From Bacteroidia bacterium (GTDB lineage Bacteria > Bacteroidota > Bacteroidia > M30B66): a stretch of 64,000 nucleotides of DNA. This document shows, piece after piece, positions 11,750-48,959 of the stretch. Numbering within the stretch: the first letter of the stretch is position 1; the number at the start of each line of letters is the position of its first letter. Made by a program: the position numbers and the translations under genes. The stretch spans positions 576,001 to 640,000 of the forward strand of contig OZ257142.1 of the NCBI GenBank assembly GCA_965279035.1, given 5' to 3'. A model generated the notes under the pieces. That model was not told the origin of the DNA. It was given only the letters and a program-made list of their open reading frames with translations, and searched no databases.

Positions 11750-11755
11750 GGGAAA

Positions 11756-12481
11756 TTAATGTGCTTGTTGCATTCCCGGCTTGTGACAGCAGGAATGTTC
11801 TGTATTGTCTGTATGTGAAAGTTGAGGACTGATATACGGAATACCCAATCCGAGTCCTCTTAAAATGAGCAGGCATGCCATAACACCAGCAACGATAGGT
11901 GCTAGTTTACGCATGGAGCTACGGAAAGATGCCGAAAGAGAAGAAAAGAGGGTGACACTGAACATAGCGGGCAAAGTACCCAACCCGAACACCGCCATGA
12001 ACAGTGCACCCAAAAAAATATCGCCTGAAGCAGTAGCTCCGGCCAAAGCCATATAAACTAACCCACAAGGCAGTAAACCATTGAACACACCAGTTAGAAA
12101 AAGAGCTGTATAGGAACGTTTGCTAAACAAATAGCTGAAACGCGCTTTAAGCCAGAATGCTAACTGAGGAAACACCACAGAGAAGAATCCATCTTTTTTA
12201 ACAGAAGGCAGCACAACCGTTATAAGTAGAAGAATACCTAACACAATCGAAAGTGTTTGTTGGTATCCTGCTAGAATTACTCCCATTCCAAGTGCACCGA
12301 AAATGGCACCTAAAACAGCATAGGTAAAAGCTCGACCAATGTTATACAGGATTATTCCAGCAACTCTACCCTGAGGACTAAGATGATGAACAGGTAGTGC
12401 CAGTGCAATAGGTCCGCACATTCCCACACAGTGGAAACTTCCAAGTATTCCTAAGCTAAATGCAGCAATCAGGAGTTCCAT
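11756..12481 (-). CDS. DsbD_2 / TauE-SafE family membrane protein (cbb3 assembly)
   Basis: GSFHCVGMCGPI, NGLLPCGLVY, FGLGT; typical position in cco clusters. Confidence 0.9.
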   Translation of the reverse strand: MELLIAAFSLGILGSFHCVGMCGPIALALPVHHLSPQGRVAGIILYNIGRAFTYAVLGAIFGALGMGVILAGYQQTLSIVLGILLLITVVLPSVKKDGFFSVVFPQLAFWLKARFSYLFSKRSYTALFLTGVFNGLLPCGLVYMALAGATASGDIFLGALFMAVFGLGTLPAMFSVTLFSSLSASFRSSMRKLAPIVAGVMACLLILRGLGLGIPYISPQLSHTDNTEHSCCHKPGMQQAH

Positions 12482-12487
12482 GGTGGC

Positions 12488-12943
12488 TTAGTTTAATACA
12501 ACAACACCTTCGTTGTAATACGTTTGAGCATCGGCAGACCAATCAATTCGGATCTTGTACATGCCTTTTCCAAGTGTTTCGGTTGAAATTTCCTGTTTCA
12601 TTTCAACATTTGCTTGAACAGGGAAGTTCACATCCGAATTATTGTTAGAAGGCTTGAAAAGCGTAATGGTTCCGCCAATTTTCTTTCCAGTAAAAGATGC
12701 TGGATAGTTAATCAGTAATTTCCCGGTTTCCACTTTCCAGCTAAGCGGTTCTGCTAAAGCTTTCGAACGGTTCGATTTATCGATTTGCTCTTGAAATACA
12801 AGCTCTTTAGCATAGTAATCTTTCGAAGTAAGGTCGAGCTTCTTGCCGAAACTATTTACGACCATTCCGATAATTCCAAGGGCAAACAAAGAATAAACGA
12901 TTGCTATTCCAGTGCCCCATGTCCAGATTTTTGATTTTTTCAT
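12488..12943 (-). CDS. fixH: FixH/CcoH family protein
   Basis: WGTGIAIVY TM helix, DYYAKEL..QEQID; follows ccoG. Confidence 0.88.
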   Translation of the reverse strand: MKKSKIWTWGTGIAIVYSLFALGIIGMVVNSFGKKLDLTSKDYYAKELVFQEQIDKSNRSKALAEPLSWKVETGKLLINYPASFTGKKIGGTITLFKPSNNNSDVNFPVQANVEMKQEISTETLGKGMYKIRIDWSADAQTYYNEGVVVLN

Positions 12944-12965
12944 GATGGTTGGGTTTTACATGAAA

Positions 12966-14387
12966 TTACTTAACAGGTCCGAGGAAGTTCGTTTTGGTAT
13001 TTTCCAGCGTTTCTCCGTCGACATTGAGTTTGAATTTTATCTCATTCTTTCTGCCTTCCAGATCTTTACGAGCAATTGTTACGAAGAATGTTCCTTCTGC
13101 TAATCCTGCTGATGGAATATTGAACTTTTCTTTTGATCCAACATGTTTAATTACACCAGCCGGAGATTCAAGAATTAAATCCAGTTTCATTTCATCCTTC
13201 GTCTTATTGACAATTTTGAAATTGTACAGATTGCTGATACTGTCTTTTCCAACTTCTTGGAACATCATTCCGGGTGCACGAAGTATAGTAGCTTCTACTT
13301 TGCTTCTTCCTGCAATTCCAAAACTTAAGCCGACCATTAGTCCTACCAAAATGATTGAATATCCAATCATTCTTAAAGTAAATGTTAGCTTTTTGCCTGA
13401 AGCAATACCGTTTTCAGAATCGTATCGAATTAATCCTTTTGGCTTATGGATTCCTTCCATAATACCATCGCAAGCATCCATACAAGCAGTACAATTCACG
13501 CATTCGAGCTGAGTACCATTACGAATGTCGATTCCAGTTGGACAAACCCGAACACATAAACCACAATCAATACAGTCGCCTAGTTTGGATGTGTCATCTC
13601 CTTTATGATGTTTTCCTCTAGGTTCGCCACGAACATAGTCGTATGCTACCATGATGGAGTTCCGATCCAGGAGTACACCTTGTAATCGTCCGTAAGGACA
13701 AACAACCAAGCATACTTGCTCACGGAAATACATGTACACGAAAAAGAAAGCTCCGGTGAAGAAAATCATCGCAGAAAATCCTCCGTAATGTTTACTGAGC
13801 GGCTCTTGAACGATGCTAATCAATTCATCCATCCCGATGATGTAGGAAAGGAAGAAGTTTCCAAACAAGAAAGAAAGAACAAAGAAGATGAATGTTTTGG
13901 TTCCTTTTTTTCGGATTTTTTCCAAGTTCCAAGGACCTTTATCGAGTTGACGTTGCTTGTTTGCATCGCCCTCTATCCAATATTCAATCTTCCTGAAAAC
14001 CATTTCCATGAAAATGGTCTGAGGACAAGCCCATCCACAGAATAACCTTCCAAAGATGACGGTAAATAGTACGATGAACACCATAAAAGTGAGCATCGCC
14101 AATGCAAACAGGAACAAGTCTTGAGGAAAAAAGACAAGTCCGAAAATGATGAACTTTCGTTCAACGATATTCATTAAAACCAGTGGATCACCATCAAGTT
14201 TTATGAATGGAATGGTAAAGAACAGAATCAGGTAGACAATACTTACAATTGTCCGTCTGTTGTAGAACTTCCCTTTGGGTCTTTGCGGGTAAATCCAATT
14301 CCGTTTTCCATCAGCAGTGATGGTGTTAATGGAGTCGCGGAAGGATTCATCTTGGGTTGGGTTTTCCCTTTTAGGGTCGGAATCCAT
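12966..14387 (-). CDS. ccoG: Cytochrome c oxidase accessory protein CcoG
   Basis: FCGWACPQT, CPYGRLQ, CIDCGLCVRVCPTGIDIR, CVNCTACMDAC. Confidence 0.96.
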   Translation of the reverse strand: MDSDPKRENPTQDESFRDSINTITADGKRNWIYPQRPKGKFYNRRTIVSIVYLILFFTIPFIKLDGDPLVLMNIVERKFIIFGLVFFPQDLFLFALAMLTFMVFIVLFTVIFGRLFCGWACPQTIFMEMVFRKIEYWIEGDANKQRQLDKGPWNLEKIRKKGTKTFIFFVLSFLFGNFFLSYIIGMDELISIVQEPLSKHYGGFSAMIFFTGAFFFVYMYFREQVCLVVCPYGRLQGVLLDRNSIMVAYDYVRGEPRGKHHKGDDTSKLGDCIDCGLCVRVCPTGIDIRNGTQLECVNCTACMDACDGIMEGIHKPKGLIRYDSENGIASGKKLTFTLRMIGYSIILVGLMVGLSFGIAGRSKVEATILRAPGMMFQEVGKDSISNLYNFKIVNKTKDEMKLDLILESPAGVIKHVGSKEKFNIPSAGLAEGTFFVTIARKDLEGRKNEIKFKLNVDGETLENTKTNFLGPVK

Positions 14388-14402
14388 GGTGTGGGTTGGG
14401 TT

Positions 14403-15632
14403 TTATTTGACTTCAGTGGCAGCCATCGCTTTGGTGGTGTCGGTTTTTACTGTTGATGTATCGCCTGGAGTGGCAGTTGGCTCAACCCAAACTTCTCCTT
14501 GAGGAGCTTTTGGGTTAGCAGGATTAGTTCCTTGTAGGGAAAGAATATAGCTGGCAACTTTTTGCATGGCTTCAGGTTTCAACTGAGCTTGCCAAGCAAT
14601 CATCCCTTTTGCAGGAACACCGTATTTGATGGTTTTGAATACATTTTGGATACCTCCTCCATGTATCCAGTTAGGATCTGTCAAGTTTGGACCAACTCCA
14701 CCTTCACCATTTTGACCATGACAAGCAGCACAATTGCCAGAATAGATTTCTTTAGCAGAGGCCAAAGAACCAGCATCCGTTAATAGTGTAACATTGGTTT
14801 CATCGACGTTAGCCGCAGTTTCTTTCAAGTGTTCTTTTTTCAACAACTCAGCTTCAATCATTGAAGATTGATATTCCTGTGTTTGGAGTGGAGAGCTGTG
14901 TGAAACGTGATAGTTGAAGAGATACACTATACCGAATACAATCGTAAAATAAAATCCGTATTTCCACCAAGGAGGAAGATTGTTGTCCAACTCACGAATA
15001 CCATCGTACTCATGGTCGGTCATAACAGTAGCTTCTTGTTCCAATGGAACAGCATCTGTTAATTGACGATCGAGCCATTTCCAGTTAATCCAAGGTTTAA
15101 CATTTTCCATATCTGGAGCTGGTTGGAAGCCAAATCCGATAAGAAGTTGTTTGATTGACTTAAGTAATCCTAGAATGATGATGAATTCTATTACAATCAT
15201 GACCAACATCAAAACGAAAATCCAACTATCGAGACCTGCAATTTGAATTGGAGGCATCCATTTATTGGTTGTTGGTCCTGTTGCAACTTCTGCTGCAACT
15301 TCTTGAGCTGAACTGCTAAGTGGCAATAAAAACGCAAGTGCTAAAATCGGGCTTAGACTTGAAATTTTGTCTTTGCGAAGTTTAGCTCTTCCTGATTCAG
15401 AAAGGTTGCGAATGGCTCCTGACAAGCTCAAAATCACTCCTAATAAAACTAATGTTGTTACCAGAAGGATGATGAATGTTGGATTCATCATGAGTGATGG
15501 AGATTCTACTGGAGTTGCTGCAGCTGCTTCAGGAGCAGCCTGTTGGGCAACTGCTGACAATGTTGTAAATAACATTGCCGGCAGGAGCATCCAACTTGAA
15601 TTCAAACGGGCGTTAGATTGAACTGTTTTCAT
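14403..15632 (-). CDS. ccoP: cbb3-type cytochrome c oxidase subunit III with long N-terminal extension
   Basis: DHEYDGIRELDNNLPPWW, single CAACH, GPNLTD, KGMIAW. Confidence 0.93.
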   Translation of the reverse strand: MKTVQSNARLNSSWMLLPAMLFTTLSAVAQQAAPEAAAATPVESPSLMMNPTFIILLVTTLVLLGVILSLSGAIRNLSESGRAKLRKDKISSLSPILALAFLLPLSSSAQEVAAEVATGPTTNKWMPPIQIAGLDSWIFVLMLVMIVIEFIIILGLLKSIKQLLIGFGFQPAPDMENVKPWINWKWLDRQLTDAVPLEQEATVMTDHEYDGIRELDNNLPPWWKYGFYFTIVFGIVYLFNYHVSHSSPLQTQEYQSSMIEAELLKKEHLKETAANVDETNVTLLTDAGSLASAKEIYSGNCAACHGQNGEGGVGPNLTDPNWIHGGGIQNVFKTIKYGVPAKGMIAWQAQLKPEAMQKVASYILSLQGTNPANPKAPQGEVWVEPTATPGDTSTVKTDTTKAMAATEVK

Positions 15633-15644
15633 AGCTGCTGTTTT

Positions 15645-15815
15645 TTACTGTTCGTCTTGCTCAAATGGGAGATTTTCCATGATTGCTACTTCTTGTTTGC
15701 TGGTGTTAAATACATGCCATAACAGCGCAATAAAGAACAAGAAGAAGATTGTTAGTGAGATCATCGGGAAGATGTCGACACCTGCAATCGTTGAGAGATA
15801 ATTAATGAATTTCAT
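15645..15815 (-). CDS. ccoQ: cbb3-type oxidase subunit CcoQ (56 aa, absent from the ORF track)
   Basis: Hand translation MKFINYLSTIAGVDIFPMISLTIFFLFFIALLWHVFNTSKQEVAIMENLPFEQDEQ*; one TM helix; lies between ccoNO and ccoP. Confidence 0.9.
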   Translation of the reverse strand: MKFINYLSTIAGVDIFPMISLTIFFLFFIALLWHVFNTSKQEVAIMENLPFEQDEQ

Positions 15816-15835
15816 GACGAATCAGGTTGGGTTGA

Positions 15836-17992
15836 TTAAGGCTTGGTTGTAGCAATTTGACCAAAGACAATTTTGTTCTCTCCTTTGATGTCTGTTCCAA
15901 GTCGTTGCAAGTAGGAAATCATGGCGATGATTTCTTTGTTAGGCAAGGCTTCGATACCAGACTCTTTAAGGTTATTTACAATTTTGTTTTGTTGGCGAAC
16001 CAAGTCTTGGTTAGCAATCTTATCATAGCCTTCAGGATAAGGTACACCCAAAGTCATCATAGCACGAATTTTAGGAGCAGTTGATGTAGTATCTAAATCA
16101 TCGTCAAGTAACCAAGGATACATTGGCATGATTGAACCTGGTGACATGGTACGAGGATCATCCATGTGGTTGTAGTGCCAGCTATCAGGATATTTTCCTC
16201 CTTCTCTTTGCAAATCTGGACCTGTACGTTTTGATCCCCACTGGAATGGATGGTCATAAACATATTCTCCAGCTTTTGAATATTCACCATAACGTTCTGT
16301 TTCGAAACGGAATGGACGAATCATTTGGCTGTGACAAGTGTAACATCCTTCACGAACATAAATATCACGACCTTGAAGTTCAAGTGGAGTGTAAGGTTGA
16401 ACAGAAGCAATTGTTGGAATATTACTCTTAATCAAGAATGTTGGAATCATTTCAACTAAACCACCAATCAGAATCATGATTAAGCTGAACAATAGCATTT
16501 GAAATGGCTTACGTTCAATTACACGGTGCCATCCTTCTGAAGCTTGGTGACCTGGAGTTGCGCCTTTTGGAAGTGGAGCAGCTTCGGCAGCTTCGTTTGC
16601 AATGAATTTACCAGCAAATGCTGTTTTCCATAAGTTGTAAATCATTACCAAGAAACCAACTAAGTATAACGTACCACCTAAAGAGCGAAGCGCATACATT
16701 GGAATCAATTGAGTTACTGTTTCCAAGAAGTTTGGATAACGTAGGAATCCATCAGCAGTAAACTCTCTCCACATTTCGAACTGAGTTAGACCAGCCCAAT
16801 AAAGTGGAATCGCATAGAACATGATTCCAAGTGTGCCAATCCAGAAATGGAAGTTGGCTAGTTTTTTAGAGAAAAGTTCACGGCCATAGAAGCGTGGGAA
16901 TAACCAGTATAGCATACCAAAGGTTAACATACCGTTCCATCCTAAAGCCCCCACGTGAACGTGTGCTATAATCCAATCGGTAAAGTGAGCAATCGCATTT
17001 ACGTTTTTCAACGAAAGCATTGGTCCTTCAAACGTCGACATACCATAAGCAGTGATTGCCACTACCATGAACTTCAATACCACATCTTCACGAACTTTAT
17101 CCCAAGCTCCACGAAGTGTCAATAATCCGTTAATCATACCACCCCAACTTGGAGCGATCAACATAAAGGAGAATACTACCCCTAATGATTGAGCCCAATC
17201 AGGAAGTGCTGTATATAACAAGTGGTGAGGACCAGCCCAGATATATAAGAAAATAAGTGCCCAGAAGTGGATAATCGATAGACGGTAAGAGTAAACCGGA
17301 CGACCAGCTGCTTTTGGTACGAAATAGTACATTAAACCTAAGTAAGGAGTAGTAAGGAAAAATGCCACCGCATTGTGACCATACCACCACTGAACCAAAG
17401 CATCCTGAACACCTGCGTATGCACTGTAGCTTTTCAAGAAACTTACAGGAAGTTCCATTGAGTTAACAATGTGTAATACCGCTACTGTTACGAAGGTTGC
17501 GATGTAGAACCAAATCGCTACATATAAGTGTTGCACCCGGCGTTTAACAATGGTTCCGAACATGTTAATCCCGAAAACCACCCAGATTAATGCAATTGCA
17601 ATATCGATTGGCCATTCGAGTTCGGCATATTCCTTACCAGTTGTGTAACCCAATGGTAAAGTAAGAGCAGCTGCAAGAATGATTAATTGCCATCCCCAGA
17701 AGTGAATGTTACTTAATGCATTACTAAACATTCGGGCTTTTAAAAGCCTTTGAAGTGAATAGTAAACACCTGCAAATATTCCGTTTCCTACAAAAGCGAA
17801 AATTACCGCATTCGTATGCAGCGGTCTAAGTCGGCCAAATGTAGTTAAGGGAAAACCCAGGTTAAGGTTCGGGAATACGAGCTCCAGCGCGATGTAAAGT
17901 CCTACAAGCATTCCAATTAATCCGAAGATTATGGATGCTACAGCGAAGTTTCGCGGGGTTCGGTTGTCGTACTCAAAACGTTCTAGTTCCAT
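15836..17992 (-). CDS. ccoN: cbb3-type cytochrome c oxidase, fused subunits I+II (CcoNO)
   Basis: GRLRPLHT, QWWYGHNAV, WAGPHH, HVH; C-terminal CYTCHSQMIRP and WGSKRTGPDL of CcoO. Confidence 0.97.
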   Translation of the reverse strand: MELERFEYDNRTPRNFAVASIIFGLIGMLVGLYIALELVFPNLNLGFPLTTFGRLRPLHTNAVIFAFVGNGIFAGVYYSLQRLLKARMFSNALSNIHFWGWQLIILAAALTLPLGYTTGKEYAELEWPIDIAIALIWVVFGINMFGTIVKRRVQHLYVAIWFYIATFVTVAVLHIVNSMELPVSFLKSYSAYAGVQDALVQWWYGHNAVAFFLTTPYLGLMYYFVPKAAGRPVYSYRLSIIHFWALIFLYIWAGPHHLLYTALPDWAQSLGVVFSFMLIAPSWGGMINGLLTLRGAWDKVREDVVLKFMVVAITAYGMSTFEGPMLSLKNVNAIAHFTDWIIAHVHVGALGWNGMLTFGMLYWLFPRFYGRELFSKKLANFHFWIGTLGIMFYAIPLYWAGLTQFEMWREFTADGFLRYPNFLETVTQLIPMYALRSLGGTLYLVGFLVMIYNLWKTAFAGKFIANEAAEAAPLPKGATPGHQASEGWHRVIERKPFQMLLFSLIMILIGGLVEMIPTFLIKSNIPTIASVQPYTPLELQGRDIYVREGCYTCHSQMIRPFRFETERYGEYSKAGEYVYDHPFQWGSKRTGPDLQREGGKYPDSWHYNHMDDPRTMSPGSIMPMYPWLLDDDLDTTSTAPKIRAMMTLGVPYPEGYDKIANQDLVRQQNKIVNNLKESGIEALPNKEIIAMISYLQRLGTDIKGENKIVFGQIATTKP

Positions 17993-17999
17993 GGCAACG

Positions 18000-18191
18000 T
18001 CAATGTTTAGGGATTGGTTGGGTTGAAGGTGTTTCTTTCTTAGGCTCTATGGCTTCATCATCAAATAGCATTCGCACAGATGGTGTGTAACTGTCGTCGA
18101 ACTGACCTTTTTTCACCGACCAAAGGAAGGCTGCTAAAAAGGCAAGTGCTACGCAAATGCTGATAAAAATTAGTACATAGAGTGCGCTCAT
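18000..18191 (-). CDS. ccoS: cbb3 oxidase assembly protein CcoS
   Basis: TM helix followed by FLWSVKKGQFDD...RMLFDD. Confidence 0.93.
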   Translation of the reverse strand: MSALYVLIFISICVALAFLAAFLWSVKKGQFDDSYTPSVRMLFDDEAIEPKKETPSTQPIPKH

Positions 18192-18223
18192 AAGGAGGAG
18201 CTAATTGGGATTTCTAATAGTGT

Positions 18224-18288
18224 CAAAAATAGACCTGTGTTAAAAGGTGTTAAATGATGCGAGTCAGGTGGGAATATGATTTTAGTCA
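18224..18288 (-). promoter_or_regulatory. ccoS/ccoN promoter: -7 element (TATTTTTG) plus two Crp/Fnr-type boxes
   Basis: TGA-TGCGAG-TCA at 18255-18266 and TGA-TTTTAG-TCA at 18277-18288, 22 bp apart; same geometry at 21361-21425. Confidence 0.7.
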
Positions 18289-18310
18289 GGTTTTATATGG
18301 GTATTTCTAC

Positions 18311-20734
18311 TCACAAATTTTTCTTCCTAGCTATTAGCGTAGAACTTAGTGTAGCAATTGAGACAATACTTATGGATGTTACAGGCATAAGTATGGCGGC
18401 AATTACGGGTTGTAGCTCACCTCGAACTGCGAACCATAATCCTACACAGTTATATAATAGCGAGATGGCAAAGCTTACAGCGATTACTCGTTTACCACTT
18501 TTACAATAATCCAATAGCGTGTTTAGTCGAGATAAAATCTTCCCATCCAAAATCGCATCGCAGGCTGGAGAAAAGTTGTTCAGATTATCCGATACCGCAA
18601 TTCCCGCATCACTTTGTTGTAAAGCACCGGCATCATTCAATCCATCACCCAACATCAAAACTGTTTTGCCTTCATCTTGAAGTTTGCGGATGAAGTTGAG
18701 TTTGTCTTCAGGTGATTGTTTGAAGTGCATTTGATTCGGCTCAAACCATGAGCTCAATTGCTGACGATCCGAATCGGTATCTCCACTCAACAAATACATG
18801 TCGTACTTGCGGCCTAAGCGACTTAATAATGTAGGAAGTTGATCGCGTAGCTGATGTTGAAGGGTATAAAAACCACACGATTCACCATTGATTCTTAAGT
18901 AAATCCGAGTCGTGTTAAGCTTTTCTTCCAATAACTCTTGATTGGTAAATGATGCTGATCCAACTTGAACCATCATCCCGTTTACCATTCCTTGGATTCC
19001 TTTACCCGAAAATTCACTGAAGTCGCTTACTACCAAACGTTCGTTACCCTGATACGATGCTGCTATGCTGCTACTTAAAGGATGTGTTGATTGCAGCACC
19101 AATGAATACACAGCAGTGATTTCATCTTTCGTTAGCTGTCTTCCTTGGAAAGTCACTTCCGCATCTCGACTTAAAGTAATGGTGCCAGTTTTATCAAAGA
19201 CAATCGTATCGGCTTTCGCCATTTTTTCAATCACAAAAGCATTCTTGAGGAAGAATCCATTTCGTCCTAAAATGCGGAGTACGTTTCCATTCGCAAAGGT
19301 GGATGCGAGGAGCAAAATACACGGACAAGCCACAATCAAAATGGTGGTTACCGCATTCATCATTCGATGAGTTTCTCCCGCCCAAAGCCAATAGGATGCT
19401 GAAGCAAGCGCCACAATAAAAATCCCCAGCGTAAAATACTGGTTGATTTTATTTTCCATGGATGCTTTCTCTTCTTCGGCTTGGTCTTTTCGGAAAGCAG
19501 GACTATTCCATAATTGGGTGAGGTAGCTTTGTTTAACGGGTTTAACAATTTCAAGCTCGATGCTCGTGCCCGATTGTCGCCCGCCGGCATAAACTAAATC
19601 TCCTTTTTTACGAATGATAGGATCTGATTCACCGGTAACAAAACTGTAATCCACTTTTGCCTCACCACGCAAAAGAATCGCATCAGCAGGAACTATTTCC
19701 TGATTACGAATCAACATGCGCATCCCCTTTTTAATTCGAGTTACTGGAATTTGTTCTTCTCCCGAATCGGAGATAACAGTTACTGCTACTGGGAAATACG
19801 ATTTATAATCACGGTCAAATGCTAATGTTTCGAAGGTTCTATTTTGGAATGCCCGTCCAATTAGCATAAAAAACACGATGCCTGTCATGGAATCGAAATA
19901 TCCTGGCCCAGTTCCGCTCAAGAGTTCGTAAACACTTCTGAGAAAGGTCATTAATACTGCAGCTGCAATAGGTAAATCGATGTTAAGGTGTTTGCTGCGT
20001 ATGGCTCCAATTCCCGAGATAAAAAAGTCACGACTGCTATAAAAAAGCACAGGAAGTGAAAGGGCAAAATTGAGCCAGCTAAAGGTGAGTTTCAAATCAG
20101 CATTTCCAGCTACTTCACCAATGGAGAAGTATTCAGGAAAACTCATCATCATAATATTACCAAAACAAAAACCGGCGATCCCGATTTTATACCATTGGCT
20201 CCGATCGACTTTTATGGCTTGTTTGTCTTCGATATCGTTTAAGCTGATATGCGGTTCATAACCAATCATGGTCATTCGTTCGGCAATTTTGCTCAAACTG
20301 GTTTCTGCTTGTTGGAAGATAACGGTTACCTCACGCTTAGGGAAGTTGACCGAAGAACTTATCACACCTTTTTCTAATCTTTGCAAGTTTTCAAGCAACC
20401 AAATACAGGAACTACAATGAATTCCTGGGACGAAAAAGGTAATGTGAGATTGTTTGTCGTTTGTAAAATGAAGGAGTTTGTTGCTCACTTCCGCTTGATC
20501 GAGGTAAGAGAATTTACCTGTGTAATTGGCTTTGTCAGGTGAATTTCCGGAGGATGGATTGAGTGTATAATAGCTACAAAGATTGTTTTCGTTTAGAATT
20601 TCGAATACCAATCGGCAGCCATCGCAACAAAATGCTTTGTCTTCAATCCATGTTGTAGTTTCCTTACAATTTTCTCCACAATGATAACAATGGAGATCGG
20701 TTCTGATTTTGGGCTCACTCGTTTTGGGTAACAT
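18311..20734 (-). CDS. ccoI: Heavy-metal (Cu) P1B-type ATPase CcoI/FixI
   Basis: CYHC..CCDGC N-domain, HCSSC, TGES, CPC, DKTGT, GDGLND. Confidence 0.93.
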   Translation of the reverse strand: MLPKTSEPKIRTDLHCYHCGENCKETTTWIEDKAFCCDGCRLVFEILNENNLCSYYTLNPSSGNSPDKANYTGKFSYLDQAEVSNKLLHFTNDKQSHITFFVPGIHCSSCIWLLENLQRLEKGVISSSVNFPKREVTVIFQQAETSLSKIAERMTMIGYEPHISLNDIEDKQAIKVDRSQWYKIGIAGFCFGNIMMMSFPEYFSIGEVAGNADLKLTFSWLNFALSLPVLFYSSRDFFISGIGAIRSKHLNIDLPIAAAVLMTFLRSVYELLSGTGPGYFDSMTGIVFFMLIGRAFQNRTFETLAFDRDYKSYFPVAVTVISDSGEEQIPVTRIKKGMRMLIRNQEIVPADAILLRGEAKVDYSFVTGESDPIIRKKGDLVYAGGRQSGTSIELEIVKPVKQSYLTQLWNSPAFRKDQAEEEKASMENKINQYFTLGIFIVALASASYWLWAGETHRMMNAVTTILIVACPCILLLASTFANGNVLRILGRNGFFLKNAFVIEKMAKADTIVFDKTGTITLSRDAEVTFQGRQLTKDEITAVYSLVLQSTHPLSSSIAASYQGNERLVVSDFSEFSGKGIQGMVNGMMVQVGSASFTNQELLEEKLNTTRIYLRINGESCGFYTLQHQLRDQLPTLLSRLGRKYDMYLLSGDTDSDRQQLSSWFEPNQMHFKQSPEDKLNFIRKLQDEGKTVLMLGDGLNDAGALQQSDAGIAVSDNLNNFSPACDAILDGKILSRLNTLLDYCKSGKRVIAVSFAISLLYNCVGLWFAVRGELQPVIAAILMPVTSISIVSIATLSSTLIARKKNL

Positions 20735-20748
20735 GTGGCAATTGGGAT

Positions 20749-21339
20749 TTAATCATCATTACTTCTCGATATCTTCCCTACTAAGGCAAGACTGCTCAAC
20801 TTCATTACTTCGGCTTCTAGCTCGATGATTTTAGGAAATAGATTTATTTTTTCTCGCTCAAGATTCTGAAGAAAGTCATTGTTGAATTCTTTGAGTTCTG
20901 CAAAACACAACTTCAACAATTCATCAGAATTCAATGGAGGATGGAAATTATTTGTAAGTCGTTTTATAGAATGTAAGAGCGCTTCGATGTGCGTATGTTC
21001 CTCTTGTATTCGACGAATGCTGCTTTCCATTAAGCGAACATTCAAAAAGCGGATAGGCTCTGGGTTTTCCTTTATTTCGATGAGTTTGCGAACAAAAGGG
21101 AATAGACTGTTTTCTTCTTGAACAATGAGTAGATTAACCTTGACTTCGATTTGTTCTAGTAAGGAAACTAAATCTTGTAAATGGATAGCATAATTCAAAT
21201 TGCCTTTTGAAGCGGATTTGAAATTTCGAGCCATCAATTTCAACATCGATTTCGACATAGCATGATGACGACTTTCTATAAAGTCGAGCAAATCAGCTTC
21301 GCCAATGGATGAAAAATTTATGTGGTTGAAACTTCGCAT
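20749..21339 (-). CDS. Hemerythrin-like / Ric (YtfE)-related protein with degenerate metal ligands
   Basis: LLDFIESRHH, EE.SLFP, EEH...I.RLTNNF.PP, E.INLFP follow the Ric pattern; no ScdA_N domain. Confidence 0.7.
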   Translation of the reverse strand: MRSFNHINFSSIGEADLLDFIESRHHAMSKSMLKLMARNFKSASKGNLNYAIHLQDLVSLLEQIEVKVNLLIVQEENSLFPFVRKLIEIKENPEPIRFLNVRLMESSIRRIQEEHTHIEALLHSIKRLTNNFHPPLNSDELLKLCFAELKEFNNDFLQNLEREKINLFPKIIELEAEVMKLSSLALVGKISRSNDD

Positions 21340-21493: not shown

Positions 21494-24361
21494 TTATTGA
21501 ATCACAACGCGAATTACTTTGCTAGCATCTTTAGAAGAAACTCGTAGCATATAAATACCTGCTTGAAGCTCATTCACAGCAAGTGTTCCATTCATATTGA
21601 TATTTTGTTCTTTCACAATTCTGCCTGTTGCATCCATCAACGAAACACGCCCATTAGTAATTGAAGTGCGGATATTCAAATTCATATCTGCTGGATTCGG
21701 AAATACAGAAAGAGTTGTTGTTGAATTTAGTTCGATTCCAGTAGTATTATCAACCGTTACAGAAACAGCATGTGCATCACTTGAGCAATAAGTAGGAGCT
21801 TGTTCAATGCTGATATTGTAGTAGTAGAAATAATATTGATTTCCATAAGTATTGCTGGTGATTGAAGCTAAATCTCCAATTAAATATGGATAAGTAACAA
21901 GCGTATTGCTGTTTTCACGTTGAAGGCGAGGACTATTTTGACTTAATGTAGATTGATTAACACTCACATCAGGAAGTAAATAAAATCCAGTACCTACTGT
22001 AAGGTCAAAATTAGCATTGATCACATTTGTTCCACTTACAAGCGTTGCTGTAACTGAATTTAATAGAGTATTGCTGCTATTGTATAAATCGAATTTACGT
22101 GGACCAGGAGTATCAGTGTAAACAGTAAACGAACGAAGTGTTGAAACTTTGAATACATCAAAATACACTTTTGAATTCGTTGTAGTTGCTCCAAATTGAT
22201 TGGATGTTAATGGTGTTACAATTCCACCATTGTCAATTCCACCACCATATCCATTCACATTGACAACATAATAAGTAGCTGTTGTAGTTACTTCAGGTGT
22301 TGTAAAGCTATTTCCAGTTCCCAAAAGAGTACCTCCAATAGCATCGTACCATTGAATGCTATCTCCTGTTGCTGTTAAAGTGGCACTACCTGGAGTTGGT
22401 AAAGTTACATTGTCTGCAACCGCTTGATTAGGAGTTAATTCAGTAACATTAATTGCTGAAGATGTAAATGTTGAACAAGCTCCTTGTATTGTTAAAGTGT
22501 AGGTACCTGATTGATCAACAGTTGTTGTATTAGTACCTGTTGTTCCATTGCTCCAAGAATATCCGTTTAAGCCTGTTGGTGCTTGAAGTACGACAGAACC
22601 ACCATTACAAAATGTAGTTTCGCCAACTGCAGAAATAGCGGGTGTTTCATCTGGCGATAATGTTACTGTAATTGTTTTTGAAACTGAATTACAAGCATTA
22701 TTTGAAGTTTGTAATACTCGCACATTGTATTCTCCAGCTGCTGTAATATTAGCTGTTTGGCTTGTAGATCCATCAGACCACAAATAATCAAATCCTTGTG
22801 GAGCTGTTAAAGCAAGTGTTTGTCCTTGACATAGAACATAATCTCCAGCAGTTGTGATAATTGCCTCAGGAGCAACACACACATTTTCTCTAACCGATAA
22901 AAATTGATCTACCTGTGGGTTAAGAATTACTTGAGAAGCGCCAGACGGCCAGCTAATTACTACAGAATCAATAGCTGTGTTTGTTCCAAGTCCAAAGTGT
23001 AAGATGGAAGTATTTACAGCACCATAGCCTTCGCCAGTGCGAACTTCTCGCATTTGAACTCCCCAAGCACCGTAAATTTTAGCACGTGCACCAACTGCAC
23101 CTAAATTACTAACAGTTCCTTCCAAATCGAGGTTGAAAAAGTGCTTACCTGATGTAGATCCATTCATCCAAATCACATCATTCACCGAAGATGGAGTTGT
23201 ATAAATGCTCGCATAACTACCATAAATATCAACAGCACCGTCGTGATTCAAATCACCAATTCCAAATGACTCCATGCTGTTGTTGTCGAATGTTCCGTTG
23301 ATACGAGTAAATGTACTGTTCCCATTATTATGATAAAAACGAGATGAACTTCCTGCAACCAAGATATCCACAAATCCATCATTGTCGAAATCTTCCATTA
23401 CCGACTGAATTGGAGTGATATCAGAAAGAACTACTCCTGCAGTTGCAGAAATATCTGTGTAATGACCAGTTCCGTCGTTTTGAAATATTTGACTTTCATG
23501 GTCATGATTAGTCAACAAAAGATCTAAGTCAGAGTCATTATCAATATCACCGAAGCTTGCAGTCCAAGTTTGCCAAAAGCAATTCAAATTGTAAGAAGCA
23601 GCATCTTCAGTGAATGTACCATCGCCATTGTTTACAAACATTACGTTTACACGACGAGGATCTGAACCATCAGTAACAGATGAACTTTGACGACATTTTG
23701 CAATGTATAAATCTAAGTCGCCATCGTTATCGAAATCGGTCCAAACACTACCATAATTACCTGAATCCATTGGATCGCCACCAATATTTCCTGGGTGAAG
23801 TGTAAAGTTGATAGTAGTGGTTGAAGGAACTAATCCTCCAGATCCATTATTTAAGTAAATGTGTGCAGGATTGTTGTCGTCGCACACAAAAAGATCTTCC
23901 CAGCCATCATTATTAAAGTCAGCTGATGTTACGTTTTGAACGAAATAACTACCGGCTAAATTGCTAACAGTACCAGTCATTCCATCGTTACTAATCATCA
24001 TAATTTTTGGCTGAGAACTGCTTCCTGCCATGATGTCTTTGTAGCCATTGTGATCAAAGTCAGCAACGCACATAGCCCAAGCCCATCCTGAACTTGAACT
24101 AAAATCACCTAAATAACGAGTTTCAAAAGTTTGATTTGTACGTTGAATTTCAACATAAGCCGAACGACCATATTTTAGACGAACAATGTCATCCAATCCG
24201 TCGTTGTTCCAATCGATAACTGCAACAGGGCAGCCGCTCGTAAATGCTGGAGTGTTTAATTTAGCATTGGCATTTGTGAATTGAAATTGAGCTTGAACAG
24301 AAGCAGCAGTTCCAACGACGAACAAACACAAAGCGGCAATGCGATGTAAAGATGTTTTCAT
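21494..24361 (-). CDS. FG-GAP repeat / ASPIC-UnbV (CRTAC1-like) protein with Ig-like domains and T9SS type A CTD
   Basis: Repeats DWNNDGLDD, DFNNDGWED, DFDNDGDLDL, GDIDNDSDLDL; LHFGLG..IDSVVISWPSG; YLWSDG/YSWSNG Ig-like units; VFPNPA...GIYMLRV. Confidence 0.9.
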   Translation of the reverse strand: MKTSLHRIAALCLFVVGTAASVQAQFQFTNANAKLNTPAFTSGCPVAVIDWNNDGLDDIVRLKYGRSAYVEIQRTNQTFETRYLGDFSSSSGWAWAMCVADFDHNGYKDIMAGSSSQPKIMMISNDGMTGTVSNLAGSYFVQNVTSADFNNDGWEDLFVCDDNNPAHIYLNNGSGGLVPSTTTINFTLHPGNIGGDPMDSGNYGSVWTDFDNDGDLDLYIAKCRQSSSVTDGSDPRRVNVMFVNNGDGTFTEDAASYNLNCFWQTWTASFGDIDNDSDLDLLLTNHDHESQIFQNDGTGHYTDISATAGVVLSDITPIQSVMEDFDNDGFVDILVAGSSSRFYHNNGNSTFTRINGTFDNNSMESFGIGDLNHDGAVDIYGSYASIYTTPSSVNDVIWMNGSTSGKHFFNLDLEGTVSNLGAVGARAKIYGAWGVQMREVRTGEGYGAVNTSILHFGLGTNTAIDSVVISWPSGASQVILNPQVDQFLSVRENVCVAPEAIITTAGDYVLCQGQTLALTAPQGFDYLWSDGSTSQTANITAAGEYNVRVLQTSNNACNSVSKTITVTLSPDETPAISAVGETTFCNGGSVVLQAPTGLNGYSWSNGTTGTNTTTVDQSGTYTLTIQGACSTFTSSAINVTELTPNQAVADNVTLPTPGSATLTATGDSIQWYDAIGGTLLGTGNSFTTPEVTTTATYYVVNVNGYGGGIDNGGIVTPLTSNQFGATTTNSKVYFDVFKVSTLRSFTVYTDTPGPRKFDLYNSSNTLLNSVTATLVSGTNVINANFDLTVGTGFYLLPDVSVNQSTLSQNSPRLQRENSNTLVTYPYLIGDLASITSNTYGNQYYFYYYNISIEQAPTYCSSDAHAVSVTVDNTTGIELNSTTTLSVFPNPADMNLNIRTSITNGRVSLMDATGRIVKEQNINMNGTLAVNELQAGIYMLRVSSKDASKVIRVVIQ

Positions 24362-24423: not shown

Positions 24424-26370
24424 TTAGTCGGATGTTAAAAGAATTCGTTGAGTGTAATTTTTTCCAATTGCTTGAACTTGGATTACATATACTCCGGCTG
24501 CTTTTGCGCCTTTAATATGCCAACTATTGTCAGCATTTTTTTTCCATTGAATTGGAACTTCTTGTCCCGAAATAGTAAACATTCGAATTGCTTGCGGTTT
24601 CAAAGAAAAACGCATGTTAATTCCACTCGAAATGCTGGCAGGATTTGGATAAAATACAGGAGCCTTTACATTCAACGCATCTGCATATAAAGGACTAATC
24701 AATTCGGTTAAACTATCGCCCGCAACAAGAACTGGTTTGTTGTCGGATGCATCAAACATGGTTAAAAATGAATTTATTTCAGAAGCATCCAAGGTGCGCA
24801 TCTCCGAAAGCCAAGCAGGAGGAACTGTTTGATAATAAACTTTGGCAGTTGTTTTAAATGCACCACTATATCCTTGAAGTGAAACGCGATAATGAATGAT
24901 ATCTTTTCCTGTTCCTTGTGTTGTGCCTGCTAAATTGAAATCGGGGTCTGAAGCTGCTTCTCCAACAATTTGAACAGTATCGTAAGATGCATGTTGAGTC
25001 GAGAATCCAAGTGGTGGAATACGATTATCTTTCAAATGAACATCGGCTCTCTCGAGAATTGTTGTGAAATCACCATTCACATCTCCCATATTCATTTCGT
25101 AAATCTGAACCTGATTTTCAGCATGAATCACATCATGATGAGGCTCCACAAATCCACCATAATTCACGATTTCGCCACTTTGATCAAATGTTCCTGAACG
25201 GAATAAGGTATCGCCAGCTTCTGTCGTTACTACAAATTCTACAAATGCTCTTCGAGATGGATAGCCACTTGGGAATTTATGTCCTGATTTATTGGTTAAC
25301 ATTAATTCAAATCCAACACTGTCATCAAAAAATACAGGATCTGATAATTCAGCCTTCAACGTATTGTATCGTAAATTACGTGTGATAGTTGAAATGGTCG
25401 AATCGAAATTTGCTTCATTGGCGATAATACCCAGAGCATCTTTATTTCTACGAATTAAATCAACCATGAAACTATTCGCGCCAGCAAAACTGTGTTGATT
25501 AAAAGGACTTCTTCCCAACAATGCCGTATAGCCAACAGCAATTTTAACGGGATCTTCCACTTGAGGCATGTGGCAGGTTTGACAGGTTTTTCCTTGTCCG
25601 GGATAACTCGAATTGAGCCATTCCTGAAAAGTAGCTTGTTCAACAAAAGTGCTTCCAGTGGGAACGCCTTGTAAATCGACAGTATGCGATATTAAAGTGT
25701 GACAAGGAGAGCAAAATCTTCCTTGACTAACATGTTCGCTGTATGTTGGGGTGAAATTTACGTACAACTGCATTGGTCCAAAAAAAGGATTGATAAATGG
25801 GCCATACGCAACACGGTTTGTATCATACGGAATATCTCCTGTAAATCGACTACCTAAGCCATTCGTTCCTATCGCGTGGCAGCCAAGGCATCCAACACCT
25901 GATAATCCGAGTGAATCATCTTGAAGATCTTCTAAAGTATAATGATCTGCCCCTTTAAAGAAAGCCGAAAAATGCCCCATTGGAGCGTGACAATCGGTAC
26001 ATAAATTTTGAAGTTCAATGGCATGTGCTGGATTGGTCAAAACCTCTTGTCGAACCTTTGCTTTCCATAATGGATCAACACCGGCAAGTCCCATCATGGA
26101 TGTTTCCCAATCATCGAAAAGATTAATGTCCACACCATCGAGCGTCACATTGGCTAGTCCTTGAGGATCGCGTCCATGGCATCCTTTACAGCGAGATGCG
26201 GGAAGAAAAATGGCAGTAGTATCAATACTGCGACTATGCATTTTAAGTAAAGCTTGAAAATGTCTGTTCGTGAGACTTTCTGGTTTTTCTGAACTCTCTC
26301 GTCCGGTAAGAGACACCGCTGCAAGCACGAACAAAAAAAGCGTACCAATGATGAGTAAACGTTTTTTCAC
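24424..26370 (-). CDS. Pentaheme c-type cytochrome with T9SS type A C-terminal domain
   Basis: Signal peptide; five CxxCH motifs (CKGCH, CTDCH, CLGCH, CSPCH, CQTCH); GHKFPSG; C-terminal FYPNPA...TISGQ...GVYVIQV...QRILL; GTG start. Confidence 0.88.
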   Translation of the reverse strand: MKKRLLIIGTLFLFVLAAVSLTGRESSEKPESLTNRHFQALLKMHSRSIDTTAIFLPASRCKGCHGRDPQGLANVTLDGVDINLFDDWETSMMGLAGVDPLWKAKVRQEVLTNPAHAIELQNLCTDCHAPMGHFSAFFKGADHYTLEDLQDDSLGLSGVGCLGCHAIGTNGLGSRFTGDIPYDTNRVAYGPFINPFFGPMQLYVNFTPTYSEHVSQGRFCSPCHTLISHTVDLQGVPTGSTFVEQATFQEWLNSSYPGQGKTCQTCHMPQVEDPVKIAVGYTALLGRSPFNQHSFAGANSFMVDLIRRNKDALGIIANEANFDSTISTITRNLRYNTLKAELSDPVFFDDSVGFELMLTNKSGHKFPSGYPSRRAFVEFVVTTEAGDTLFRSGTFDQSGEIVNYGGFVEPHHDVIHAENQVQIYEMNMGDVNGDFTTILERADVHLKDNRIPPLGFSTQHASYDTVQIVGEAASDPDFNLAGTTQGTGKDIIHYRVSLQGYSGAFKTTAKVYYQTVPPAWLSEMRTLDASEINSFLTMFDASDNKPVLVAGDSLTELISPLYADALNVKAPVFYPNPASISSGINMRFSLKPQAIRMFTISGQEVPIQWKKNADNSWHIKGAKAAGVYVIQVQAIGKNYTQRILLTSD

Positions 26371-26436: not shown

Positions 26437-27147
26437 CTAATCGTAAATGTTTGCTGCCTTTACTAATTGCTGATGATTTAGAATAGAAATGCGTTTTCCA
26501 TTCAAAGCAATTACTTGATCATTCTTCAATTCACTCAATAATCGGATAGCTGTTTCGGTGGCAGTTCCCACAATGTTTGCAATATCTTCACGACTAAGAG
26601 TAACACTTATTGTAACTCCATCTTGATCTAGACCATAGGTTTGTTGCAAATAAAGCAAAGCTTCTGCAACCCTTTCTCTTACTGGCTTTTGAGCTATATC
26701 TGTAATGCGGTGTTCGGCATGTTTTAAATCTTCAGAAAGAAGTTTCATCAATTGCATTGATAAAACACCGTTGCCTTCAACCAGTTTTAAAAAGGAAGAT
26801 TGTGGAATAAAACAGATTTTACAATCATCTAGAGCTTCAGCACTGGAAGAATATTTATCGCCACTTAAAAGAGCTCGATATCCTAAAATATCTCCACCAC
26901 GAGCCAACCTTACAATTTGCTCTTTCCCTTCATCTCCAATACGAAAAATCTTGATTTTCCCATCGTTCACACAATAAAGACCGTGTGGATACGAACCCGC
27001 ATTAAATATTATTTGACCTTTTTTGAAATTGCTACAGCCCTTCGTTTCATTTAAAGCCTCTAAATCATGACCATGTAAGTCACAAAAAACGGAACGCGAT
27101 CTATTTGAACAATGCTCACAATCAGGTTGGTCGTTCTTTCGAAGCAT
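26437..27147 (-). CDS. Crp/Fnr family transcriptional regulator with N-terminal Cys cluster
   Basis: C10-x2-C13-x8-C22 plus distal Cys (DDCKICF); cNMP-fold GKIKIF..GKEQI; HTH SREDIANIVGTATETAIR. Confidence 0.93.
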   Translation of the reverse strand: MLRKNDQPDCEHCSNRSRSVFCDLHGHDLEALNETKGCSNFKKGQIIFNAGSYPHGLYCVNDGKIKIFRIGDEGKEQIVRLARGGDILGYRALLSGDKYSSSAEALDDCKICFIPQSSFLKLVEGNGVLSMQLMKLLSEDLKHAEHRITDIAQKPVRERVAEALLYLQQTYGLDQDGVTISVTLSREDIANIVGTATETAIRLLSELKNDQVIALNGKRISILNHQQLVKAANIYD

Positions 27148-27344
27148 AGGGATTTATTAATGGTGTAAATATAACATTCGAAATGTACAGTTCAACGTAA
27201 ATAATTCAGATCAATTTAAATTGGGTTAAAATTCTATTTGTTTTTTAAAAACTCATGAAAAAAATCGAAAAGGGGACATGAATTCGGTTCATTGGAAACT
27301 TACCTTCGCATCGAAATTAAATGCTGCGTTTTTACTAAAAATTT

Positions 27345-48910: not shown

Positions 48911-48959
48911 GATTGAATAATTTTCAATCAAAGTAACGTGGATGCGGAAAGCGTGTAAA

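Follow-up and report, generated by a model that had tools for sequence, protein, structure and literature searches.

A predicted type IX-secreted pentahaem cytochrome of Bacteroidota and its FG-GAP/ASPIC-UnbV partner

The pentahaem cytochrome gene and its family

The window, i.e., the whole 64-kb stretch of DNA analyzed here, carries on its minus strand a gene for a pentahaem c-type cytochrome that ends in a predicted type A C-terminal domain (CTD) of the T9SS (type IX secretion system). It is followed 62 nt downstream, on the same strand, by a gene encoding an FG-GAP/ASPIC-UnbV propeller protein, and preceded by the gene of an Fnr/Crp-family regulator, with cbb3 genes lying farther downstream. 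An ORF of FeoB size occurs elsewhere in the window. The features are as follows (positions are those of the window):

24424..26370, minus strand: whole gene, pentahaem c-type cytochrome with T9SS type A CTD, 648 aa, GTG start
26302..26370, minus strand: signal-peptide-like N-terminus, residues 1-23 (MKKR and a hydrophobic helix), judged by eye
26176..26190, minus strand: first CxxCH motif, C61-H65, CKGCH, invariant (134/134)
25987..26001, minus strand: second CxxCH motif, C124-H128, CTDCH, invariant (134/134)
25876..25890, minus strand: third CxxCH motif, C161-H165, CLGCH, invariant (134/134)
25699..25713, minus strand: fourth CxxCH motif, C220-H224, CSPCH, invariant (134/134)
25570..25584, minus strand: fifth CxxCH motif, C263-H267, CQTCH, invariant (134/134)
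25366..26217, minus strand: five-haem cap, mainly helical, residues 52-335 (AF2, 5ZE8 alignment, profile match)
24697..25365, minus strand: Ig-like beta-sandwich domain, residues 336-558 (AF2, alignment, 5ZE8 match)
24433..24657, minus strand: T9SS type A C-terminal sorting domain, residues 572-646 (TIGR04183, AF2)
21494..24361, minus strand: partner gene, 955 aa, FG-GAP propeller, ASPIC/UnbV, Ig-like region and T9SS type A CTD (Pfam, NCBIfam)
26437..27147, minus strand: Fnr/Crp-family regulator with an N-terminal Cys cluster, 66 nt upstream of the cytochrome gene (Pfam, NCBIfam)
10388..21339, minus strand: downstream context, with genes for a RIC/hemerythrin-like protein and a CcoI-like P-type ATPase, fused ccoNO, a ccoP-like gene, ccoG, two unassigned ORFs and hemN

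The GTG start is credible, since homologues align from residue 1 (coverage 98-100%), and the AF2 model places a helix at residues 2-20 followed by a low-confidence linker at 24-28. In the alignment of 134 family members, the fifteen Cys/His columns of the CxxCH motifs show no variation. Correspondingly, among the 150 listed representatives of 50% clusters, all 120 that are at least 500 aa long have five or more such motifs, the remaining 30 (<500 aa) being partial sequences. CxxCH counts of eight and seven are seen in two proteins, P0224 and P0246, respectively. Of 8000 candidates scored against the family, 4066 matched at E <= 0.001. In a sample of 301 genomes from the phylum, 10 encode a strong match (best E <= 1e-180).

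Predicted secretion tail, constant partner and neighbourhood

Residues 574-644 match TIGR04183 with 32.1 bits (E 8.6e-8), above the cut-off of 23, whereas the score against Pfam PF18962 (Por_Secre_tail) is 20.8 bits, under its cut-off of 27; a precomputed PF18962 match exists for about half of the close homologues. The domain is modelled by AF2 as a beta-sandwich (pLDDT about 95) that resembles the translocon-bound CTDs 8glk_D, 8glj_D, 8gl6_D and 8gl8_D at Z 7.4-8.2, values that unrelated Ig-like folds reach as well. Across the family, a tail of 78-164 aa extends beyond the core in 77 of 134 aligned members; the 57 tail-less ones fall mostly into one starred clade of a FastTree phylogeny, a method whose stars deserve less trust. 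TIGR04183 scores above cut-off in 38/58 family representatives and in 0/50 tail-less distant ones. Since an HMM built from the CTDs of the partner protein under-calls, detecting 49 of the 77 tail-bearing rows, tail length and TIGR04183 were used as criteria instead.

Parts of the machinery that such a protein would require are encoded in relatives. SprA is found in long ORFs of two related genomes (G001 and G003), and the window itself encodes four other TIGR04183 proteins. The same two genomes encode CcsA-family proteins in ORFs of 837 and 879 aa, with no match to PF05140 (ResB) in either. Additionally, the ccoNO and ccoP-like genes of the window bear CxxCH motifs, so cytochrome c maturation must exist in the host. 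A multihaem cytochrome as T9SS cargo is a well-supported prediction from the CTD together with the invariant CxxCH motifs; a literature search, with most subscription journals outside its scope, returned no paper joining T9SS with multihaem cytochromes.

The most constant feature of the neighbourhood is the gene immediately downstream. The FG-GAP/ASPIC-UnbV gene directly follows the cytochrome gene on the same strand in 46/48 informative loci, and its product carries its own CTD (45.9 bits against TIGR04183). Near the tail-less relatives, tblastn matched this partner in 0/80 metagenome loci, many of them short, and no FG-GAP or UnbV Pfam match at 1e-5 was obtained among 119 neighbour ORFs from 30 tail-less loci. 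Complex prediction for the cytochrome core (residues 52-558) and the partner propeller (24-510) gave scores of 0.00, 0.40 and 0.08, which speak neither for nor against binding. We know of no assigned function for the ASPIC/UnbV (CRTAC1-like) propeller class, and a literature search confined to titles and abstracts found no paper on a pairing of UnbV/ASPIC proteins with cytochromes.

Other neighbours are less widely shared. The Fnr gene lies upstream in 13 loci, all within the 15 closest ones with upstream DNA, and cbb3 genes accompany the pair in just three related loci (L009, L010 and L013); in the window, the ccoP-like gene reaches 108.1 bits with TIGR00782, short of the 179.95 that this model requires. 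The location of the pair between an Fnr-type regulator and cbb3 genes in the window's lineage suggests use at low oxygen. Fnr boxes (TTGAT-N4-ATCAA, at most two mismatches) were not above chance, with 105 matches compared to 84.5 +/- 10 expected, and the 66-nt spacer between fnr and the cytochrome gene holds none. One site with two mismatches lies upstream of fnr, at 27201-27214. When a third conserved gene was sought in 40 deeper loci, the neighbours that recur proved to have housekeeping roles (M42 peptidase, pyruvate kinase and MacB/FtsX, among others); they reflect lineage synteny and were rejected as functional partners. No outer-membrane porin or periplasmic multihaem partner is present among the ORFs of the window, nor was either found among examples, scanned with Pfam, of the ten neighbour clusters that recur most in the 40 deeper loci.

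A preliminary description, made from the sequence of this locus, had proposed a five-CxxCH cytochrome with a type A CTD, delivered by T9SS and set within an Fnr/cbb3 cluster. The five motifs are borne out by their invariance in 134 homologues and the CTD by its TIGR04183 score, which supports a cytochrome as T9SS cargo as a prediction; the Fnr/cbb3 setting, present in the window, proved to be lineage-specific. The description had also inferred a route to extracellular electron transfer or redox catalysis, for which the loci covered here, i.e., the window and the 40 deeper ones, show no linked gene that would carry electrons across the outer membrane. The survey of homologues and synteny that the description had called for identified as the constant neighbour the FG-GAP/ASPIC-UnbV gene, which it had not linked to the cytochrome. 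Thus, across the family the partner is the FG-GAP/ASPIC-UnbV gene, and Fnr and cbb3 are neighbours in close relatives only.

These data also bear on whether the protein could be a periplasmic cytochrome, e.g., one that shuttles electrons to the cbb3 oxidase, with a tail that is merely CTD-like or goes unused. Such an arrangement would fit the adjoining cbb3 genes in the window's lineage, the sub-threshold PF18962 score, the commonness of Ig-like folds and the periplasmic location of relatives whose location is known (MccSep, according to the accessible part of its description). We nevertheless regard it as improbable: the window protein and most representatives pass the TIGR04183 cut-off, the tail is confined to one part of the tree and absent from the 57 tail-less members, the constant partner has a clear CTD of its own, and the cbb3 linkage does not extend beyond the three related loci.

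Core fold and proposed function

The whole-protein AF2 model has a mean pLDDT of 93.9, with values mostly >90 in the five-haem cap. Its core (residues 52-556) aligns over 348 residues with PDB 5ZE8, the structure of a low-potential pentahaem cytochrome, c552, from Thermochromatium tepidum (Z 26.0, rmsd 2.7 Å, 21% identity), the next entry scoring 8.8, and the same structure is reached by Foldseek (E 9.8e-17) and by profile search (E 1.2e-11). As modelled, the core thus has the c552 fold. With the single sequence, a search of solved structures gave nothing significant (best E 0.04), i.e., c552 and MccSep are both reached among solved structures by profile and neither by the sequence alone. According to the accessible text of one report, c552 has not yet been assigned a clear function (PMC11976967). 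In line with this, c552 being the sole full-length structural match, a full-length match to a characterised periplasmic enzyme, which would have spoken against the preliminary description, is absent.

The second relationship emerging from the profiles is with MccSep/ExtKL of Geobacter sulfurreducens (PDB 9WT8, NF040886), described in the part of its source available to us as a periplasmic, tetrameric polysulfide reductase. It likewise combines five CxxCH motifs with an Ig-like stem and shares a GH-x-x-P-x-G-[U]-P loop with the window protein (profile E 6.4e-7), from which it differs in being periplasmic and not T9SS-tagged. The match to NF040886 itself is distant (30.6 bits, below the cut-off of 250), and weak matches of this kind recur in 50/58 and 48/50 family members. 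The Ig-like domain contains an invariant G363-H364-K-F-P-S-G-Y370-P motif, H411 and D448-x-R450, and it is Tyr370 that occupies the position of the MccSep Sec325 (D-G-U-P loop), in a column with Y in 81, F in 34, I in 14, H in 4 and L in 1 of 134 members. The column equivalent to C239, which in MccSep is the distal ligand of haem 2 (around residue 241 here, the alignment being approximate), is also variable (T39/E18/S16/V11), with no Cys among these four commonest residues. By sequence comparison, the window protein is a distant relative of MccSep/ExtKL that lacks its Sec/Cys and its haem-ligating Cys, the residues that mark the one characterised relative as an enzyme.

Further His and Met residues had been suggested beforehand as possible distal ligands, and six such columns are indeed conserved: M93 (126 of 134 members), M200 (133), H213 (119), H293 (133), H364 (134) and H411 (134). 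The six to seven conserved His/Met residues could be enough to provide a sixth ligand to all five haems. In the profile alignment, M93 takes the position of a His in c552, and a Met in place of His would be expected to raise the potential of that haem. Electron transfer is favoured over MccSep-like catalysis on three grounds, namely that the MccSep active-site residues are missing, that the conserved His/Met residues may supply a sixth ligand for each of the five haems, and that one putative distal ligand, a His in c552, is a Met here.

Seven polar residues are also invariant in 134/134 members (E244, Q245, E250, N299, R373, D448 and R450) and have no obvious ligand role; E244, Q245, E250, R373, D448 and R450 could mark a catalytic pocket, and E244/Q245 lie three residues from the C239-equivalent column. 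They lend some weight to the alternative that the protein is a T9SS-exported extracellular enzyme, in which a single haem, corresponding to haem 2 of MccSep, would act on something soluble outside the cell (for instance, an oxyanion of sulfur or nitrogen, a peroxide or an organic compound), with the partner binding or presenting the substrate and no electrons needed from the cell. The haem core does come from a family whose characterised member, MccSep, is an enzyme according to the accessible part of its description, a weak profile match to NrfA exists (8bcx_A, E 9.1e-5), and a self-contained enzyme would account for the lack of a linked outer-membrane conduit. However, hydrophobic or aromatic residues fill the Sec/Cys position in this family, the C239-equivalent column is variable and without Cys among its commonest residues, and the conserved His/Met residues could saturate all five haems, so that we consider catalysis a rather unlikely alternative.

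It is very improbable that the protein serves not respiration but the handling of iron or haem, whether by reducing ferric iron at the surface or by carrying haem for iron uptake. T9SS does export the hemin-binding protein HBP35, whose structure, probably because of its CTD, is the second Foldseek hit, and the FeoB-size ORF of the window could be read in the same direction. However, haems bound covalently at CxxCH are no transport form, and the conserved two-gene unit has no linked iron-uptake genes.

The model and the sequence data are probably best explained by an extracellular redox pair delivered by T9SS, in which a pentahaem cytochrome of the c552/'PHC' fold and a co-secreted FG-GAP/ASPIC-UnbV propeller would serve as an electron relay or store. 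In this Bacteroidota lineage, the tagged cytochrome and the propeller are inherited together as a two-gene unit. The cytochrome would be exported by Sec, receive its haems in the periplasm from a CcsBA-type system, pass as a folded holoprotein through the SprA translocon under the guidance of its CTD and, upon removal of the CTD, be anchored at the surface or released. Outside the cell, it would relay or store electrons beside the propeller and exchange them with an extracellular redox substrate. A more elaborate version, which we think unlikely, is that the T9SS-placed holo-pentahaem cytochrome and a calcium-binding propeller partner form an extracellular electron-exchange device, possibly as an oligomer or filament; the latter form is considered because the accessible text of PMC11976967 connects cytochromes resembling c552 with the cytochrome nanowires of archaea. 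In this version, common aerobic or micro-aerobic Bacteroidota of freshwater and soil could trade electrons with minerals, humic matter or other cells with no porin-cytochrome conduit.

If the proposal of a secreted redox pair is correct, a large and conserved family of tagged pentahaem cytochromes would bring redox chemistry into the range of T9SS cargo. Bacteroidota, which abound in lakes, soils and wastewater, might then take part in the redox cycling of iron, manganese and humic substances. Additionally, the fixed pairing with a cytochrome would offer a first functional handle on the widespread ASPIC/UnbV propeller class.

Comparison with known systems

The closest structural relative, c552, shares with the window protein its two-domain architecture, i.e., a five-haem cap and an Ig-like sandwich, as well as the G-H-x-x-P-x-G motif. 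Unlike the window protein, with its core of about 505 aa, c552 lacks a CTD and measures about 400 aa; its source is a purple sulfur bacterium, that of the window protein a member of the Bacteroidota.

A comparison can also be drawn with the pentahaem 'PHC' family, by description only. It includes sPHC/lPHC of cable bacteria and Gsu2801, and PtdA of marine Alphaproteobacteria, which adjoins a porin, is considered alongside it; the accessible parts of these descriptions mention neither a T9SS tag nor an FG-GAP partner. The porin beside PtdA is reminiscent of the tail-less relatives on metagenome contigs, which in 14/30 loci adjoin a fusion of a monohaem cytochrome with an outer-membrane barrel of 12 strands, an association that connects the family at large with the outer membrane. 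The model of this fusion has 12-13 strands, and its best matches, FapF, NanC and KdgM among them, are barrels of 12 strands. Membership in Cyc2, which the accessible part of Keffer et al. (10.1101/228056) defines by a barrel of 16 strands and by PxFAR[QK][TY] preceding CxxCH, was rejected for the fusion, since it has about 12 strands and the motif is not seen in an alignment of 13 sequences. In three genomes of the CTD-bearing type (G001-G003) the barrel fusion was not found, the weak matches there covering the cytochrome c part alone.

Multihaem cytochromes are known to be exported outside Gram-negative cells by porin-cytochrome complexes, type II secretion and filament assembly. MtrCAB, PioAB/MtoAB and Cyc2 are, as the predicted product might be, c-type cytochrome systems associated with the outer membrane that exchange electrons with the outside, and there are weak local matches to MtrC/OmcA-type models (PF22113, 22.4 bits; TIGR03507 in 18/58 members). 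Porin-cytochrome conduits rely on a porin or decahaem partner, whereas none is linked to the window gene, whose product would be delivered by secretion and not by barrel insertion.

Characterised T9SS cargo consists mainly of hydrolases, adhesins and motility proteins. The type A cargo among them (gingipains, HBP35, NucA, RemA, chitinase) carries a CTD of ~75 aa recognised by TIGR04183, as does the window protein, whose CTD resembles those seen bound to the translocon (8glk_D, Z 8.2; 8glj_D, 7.9), although unrelated Ig-like folds score alike. The difference lies in what this signal would carry: in the window, the predicted cargo is a redox protein covalently loaded with haem.

Tagging and predicted fold of the cytochrome

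The pentahaem cytochrome is encoded by the following gene:

24424-26370, minus strand: pentahaem cytochrome, 648 aa, GTG start

Homologue alignments reach query residue 1, and the protein opens with MKKR and a hydrophobic segment and ends in ...VFYPNP...GVYVIQV...RILL. The preliminary description had read five CxxCH motifs and a type A type IX secretion (T9SS) sorting domain (CTD) from this sequence, and both readings are borne out: the motifs are present (first Cys at residues 61, 124, 161, 220 and 263) and invariant across a 134-sequence family alignment, and TIGR04183 (NCBIfam, T9SS type A sorting domain) scores 32.1 bits against a cut-off of 23 over residues 574-644, despite a Pfam PF18962 score of 20.8 bits, under its cut-off of 27. 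The haem region is described by no Pfam or NCBIfam model, the top scores being Cytochrome_C7 (25.4 bits) and the ExtKL model NF040886 (30.6 bits; cut-off 250).

An AlphaFold2 model built from the 134-sequence alignment (mean pLDDT 93.9, pTM 0.83) comprises four parts:

residues ~52-335: helical cap
residues 336-558: beta-sandwich
residues ~560-571: weak linker
residues 572-646: beta-sandwich, the CTD

In structural searches the CTD resembles those of translocon complexes (8glk_D, Z 8.2; 8glj_D, 7.9; 8gl6_D, 7.5; 8gl8_D, 7.4) and matches those of RgpB, PorZ and mirolase. Unrelated Ig-like domains reach the same Z, so the fold alone is no proof of a CTD. That the cytochrome is periplasmic and bears a mere CTD look-alike is nevertheless improbable, being opposed by the TIGR04183 score.

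Several features may point to T9SS and cytochrome capacity in the host. Two related genomes, G001 and G003, each hold one pentahaem gene copy and encode SprA and CcsA-family proteins (ORFs of 837 and 879 aa); ResB (PF05140) was undetected in both. In a third, G002 (locus L045), the pentahaem gene is broken into open frames of 285 and 371 aa, probably by a frameshift from long-read assembly. Within the 64-kb window, CxxCH is present in ccoNO and a ccoP-like gene, and four other proteins carry TIGR04183, among them the partner described below and the following, all above cut-off:

3593-5518, plus strand: SBBP-type propeller
43715-45529, minus strand: delta-60-repeat protein
45551-48931, minus strand: 1126-aa protein without other match

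A conserved propeller partner

The neighbouring gene encodes a second tagged protein:

21494-24361, minus strand: propeller partner, 955 aa, with FG-GAP repeats (131 bits) and ASPIC/UnbV (67.9 bits)

It also has an Ig-like region and its own TIGR04183 domain (45.9 bits), and invariant Asp/Asn/Gly calcium-loop motifs predominate in its alignment. Across 63 related loci from species genomes, 48 were informative (at least 1500 nt downstream); in 46 of these a homologue of the partner lies next downstream on the same strand, mostly 10-140 nt away, the only exceptions being L025 and L059. An Fnr-type gene lies upstream in 13 loci only, all within the 15 closest relatives having upstream DNA, and cbb3-related genes lie downstream in three only; in 40 deeper loci, the genes that otherwise recur nearby have housekeeping roles. 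Therefore, the conserved unit is the cytochrome with its propeller, both T9SS-tagged. The Fnr/cbb3 neighbourhood noted in the preliminary description holds in the window and fades beyond close relatives; this local arrangement hints at low-oxygen expression, for which an Fnr-box search gave no support.

Two further observations concern this region. The propeller gene is separated from that of a CcoI-like ATPase by a hemerythrin/RIC-like 196-aa ORF (20749-21339, minus strand; TIGR03652 at 60 bits, short of its cut-off), which keeps this place in five related loci (L009, L010, L012, L013 and L015). Inside the cco cluster, two minus-strand ORFs (11756-12481 and 12488-12943) have no NCBIfam match at 1e-6; we take them to be, probably, a FixH- or CcoH-like protein and a small membrane protein.

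In our judgement, the cytochrome and propeller fairly probably form an extracellular redox pair delivered by T9SS. The cytochrome would relay or store electrons, and the propeller would serve as its scaffold, as a docking partner or as a substrate binder; we infer the substrate, the pairing and each step from haem loading through export to CTD cleavage. The main weakness of this reading is that no outer-membrane electron route was linked to the pair, in the window or in 40 deeper loci. A less likely alternative is that the exported cytochrome is an enzyme using a catalytic haem, and a part in iron or haem handling is very improbable.

Tagged and tail-less branches of the family

Of 8000 candidates scored in a word-indexed search, 4066 passed E <= 0.001. 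Uncultured Bacteroidia and related bins are the source of the 120 best (50-100% identity, 555-680 aa), which are named, where at all, 'T9SS type A sorting domain-containing protein' or 'hypothetical protein'; an identical protein is encoded on a 4.2-Mb contig. Searched exhaustively, the 50%-identity representatives gave 2687 matches at E <= 1e-3, 561 of them at E <= 1e-30, typically spanning query residues ~50-555; of the 150 representatives listed, the 120 with at least 500 aa each carry five or more CxxCH. Several Bacteroidota clusters of a protein atlas share the cytochrome's make-up under the automatic names 'hypothetical' or 'multiheme c-type cytochrome family protein'. We sampled 301 genomes from across the phylum: matches at E <= 1e-20 turned up in 24 and at E <= 1e-180 in 10, some of them in two or three copies. 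Genomes with two or three strong copies include G106, G090 and G110.

TIGR04183 occurs in 38 of 58 representatives nearer the query and in none of 50 distant ones. A tail of 78-164 residues follows the core (52-556) in 77 of 134 aligned rows, and at most 24 residues do in the other 57. When the core alone was placed in a tree with FastTree (a quick method, root not inferred), a single starred clade gathered 52 tail-less rows, and each of the 48 rows on the window's side bore the tail. A crude pattern finds a lipoprotein-like N-terminal signal in 30 of 90 representatives without a CTD.

The tail-less relatives were sampled at 30 metagenome loci (30-35% identity). In 14 of these the pentahaem gene adjoins a gene for a cytochrome-barrel protein (13 upstream on the same strand, one divergent), for example:

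L100:6643-7833: monohaem cytochrome c fused to a 12-strand outer-membrane barrel

The others are L084, L088, L092, L093, L108, L113, L127, L129, L133, L079, L077, L105 and L087. The protein (~375 aa; ~1000 aa in one locus) has one cytochrome c domain and an aromatic last residue, and its model (pLDDT 89.1) places 12-13 strands after that domain; FapF (E 6e-11) is the closest of the 12-strand outer-membrane barrels that these strands resemble, followed by NanC, KdgM and a COG4313 channel. Its sole database name is 'c-type cytochrome', in Balneolaceae/Rhodothermaceae such as Gracilimonas, Fodinibius, Rhodohalobacter and Longibacter. The layout is similar to that of the fused cytochrome-porin Cyc2, whereas the Cyc2 signature motif is missing and the barrel is smaller; membership was thus rejected. 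Such monohaem fusions are widespread (6007 of 8000 scored candidates at E <= 1e-5). Separately, at some tail-less loci (L084:9649-10467, L085:8582-9400, L085:9363-9989) the pentahaem gene precedes genes for a DUF2231 + TPR membrane protein and a transmembrane protein resembling ferric reductases, which could form an inner-membrane electron entry point.

The cytochrome-barrel protein was not found in three CTD-type genomes, nor the FG-GAP partner at the tail-less metagenome loci; the family therefore appears to occupy two outer-membrane settings that exclude each other, a pattern that supports, without proving, that it acts at the outer membrane or beyond it.

Relation to known pentahaem proteins

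The pentahaem fold and the T9SS tag are each already known. No paper describing their combination, the fixed propeller partner or the His-to-Met change treated below was found in a literature search of incomplete coverage.

Among solved structures, the family profile matches Thermochromatium tepidum c552 (5ze8_A, E 1.2e-11), MccSep/ExtKL of Geobacter (9wt8_A, E 6.4e-7) and NrfA (8bcx_A, E 9.1e-5); 8e5g_A, presumably an archaeal cytochrome nanowire subunit, is not significant (E 0.02). MccSep reduces polysulfide in the periplasm as a tetramer; it pairs a five-haem cap with an Ig-like stem, C239 ligates its haem 2, and Sec325 lies within a D-G-U-P loop (10.1101/2025.11.18.688581). In the profile alignment this loop faces G363-H-K-F-P-S-G-Y370-P of the cytochrome; the Sec325 column holds Y81/F34/I14/H4/L1 of 134, and the column nearest C239 is variable, with Cys not among its four commonest residues. 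MccSep membership was therefore rejected: judged by these columns, the cytochrome is a relative for which the MccSep mechanism is impossible.

c552 is the top structural match over model residues 52-556 among representative structures (Z 26.0, rmsd 2.7 A, 348 residues), far ahead of the runner-up (Z 8.8), and Foldseek also finds it (E 9.8e-17). Its W-K-G-S-M-H aligns with W-x-x-S-M-M93, where M93 is Met in 126 of 134 family members, so a probable distal His of c552 is replaced by Met. Conserved His/Met beyond CxxCH (M92/M93, M200, H213, H293, H364 and H411) would be enough to supply sixth ligands for five haems, in a putative assignment; D99, P100, G190, E244, Q245, E250, S254, G297, N299, G363, H364, P367, R373, H411, D448, R450 and P453 are invariant across the 134 sequences. 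The outer-membrane settings of the family agree with published accounts in which c552-like pentahaem proteins have porin neighbours (PtdA/PtdB) and are grouped with ExtKL and Gsu2801 in a 'PHC' family (PMC11976967).
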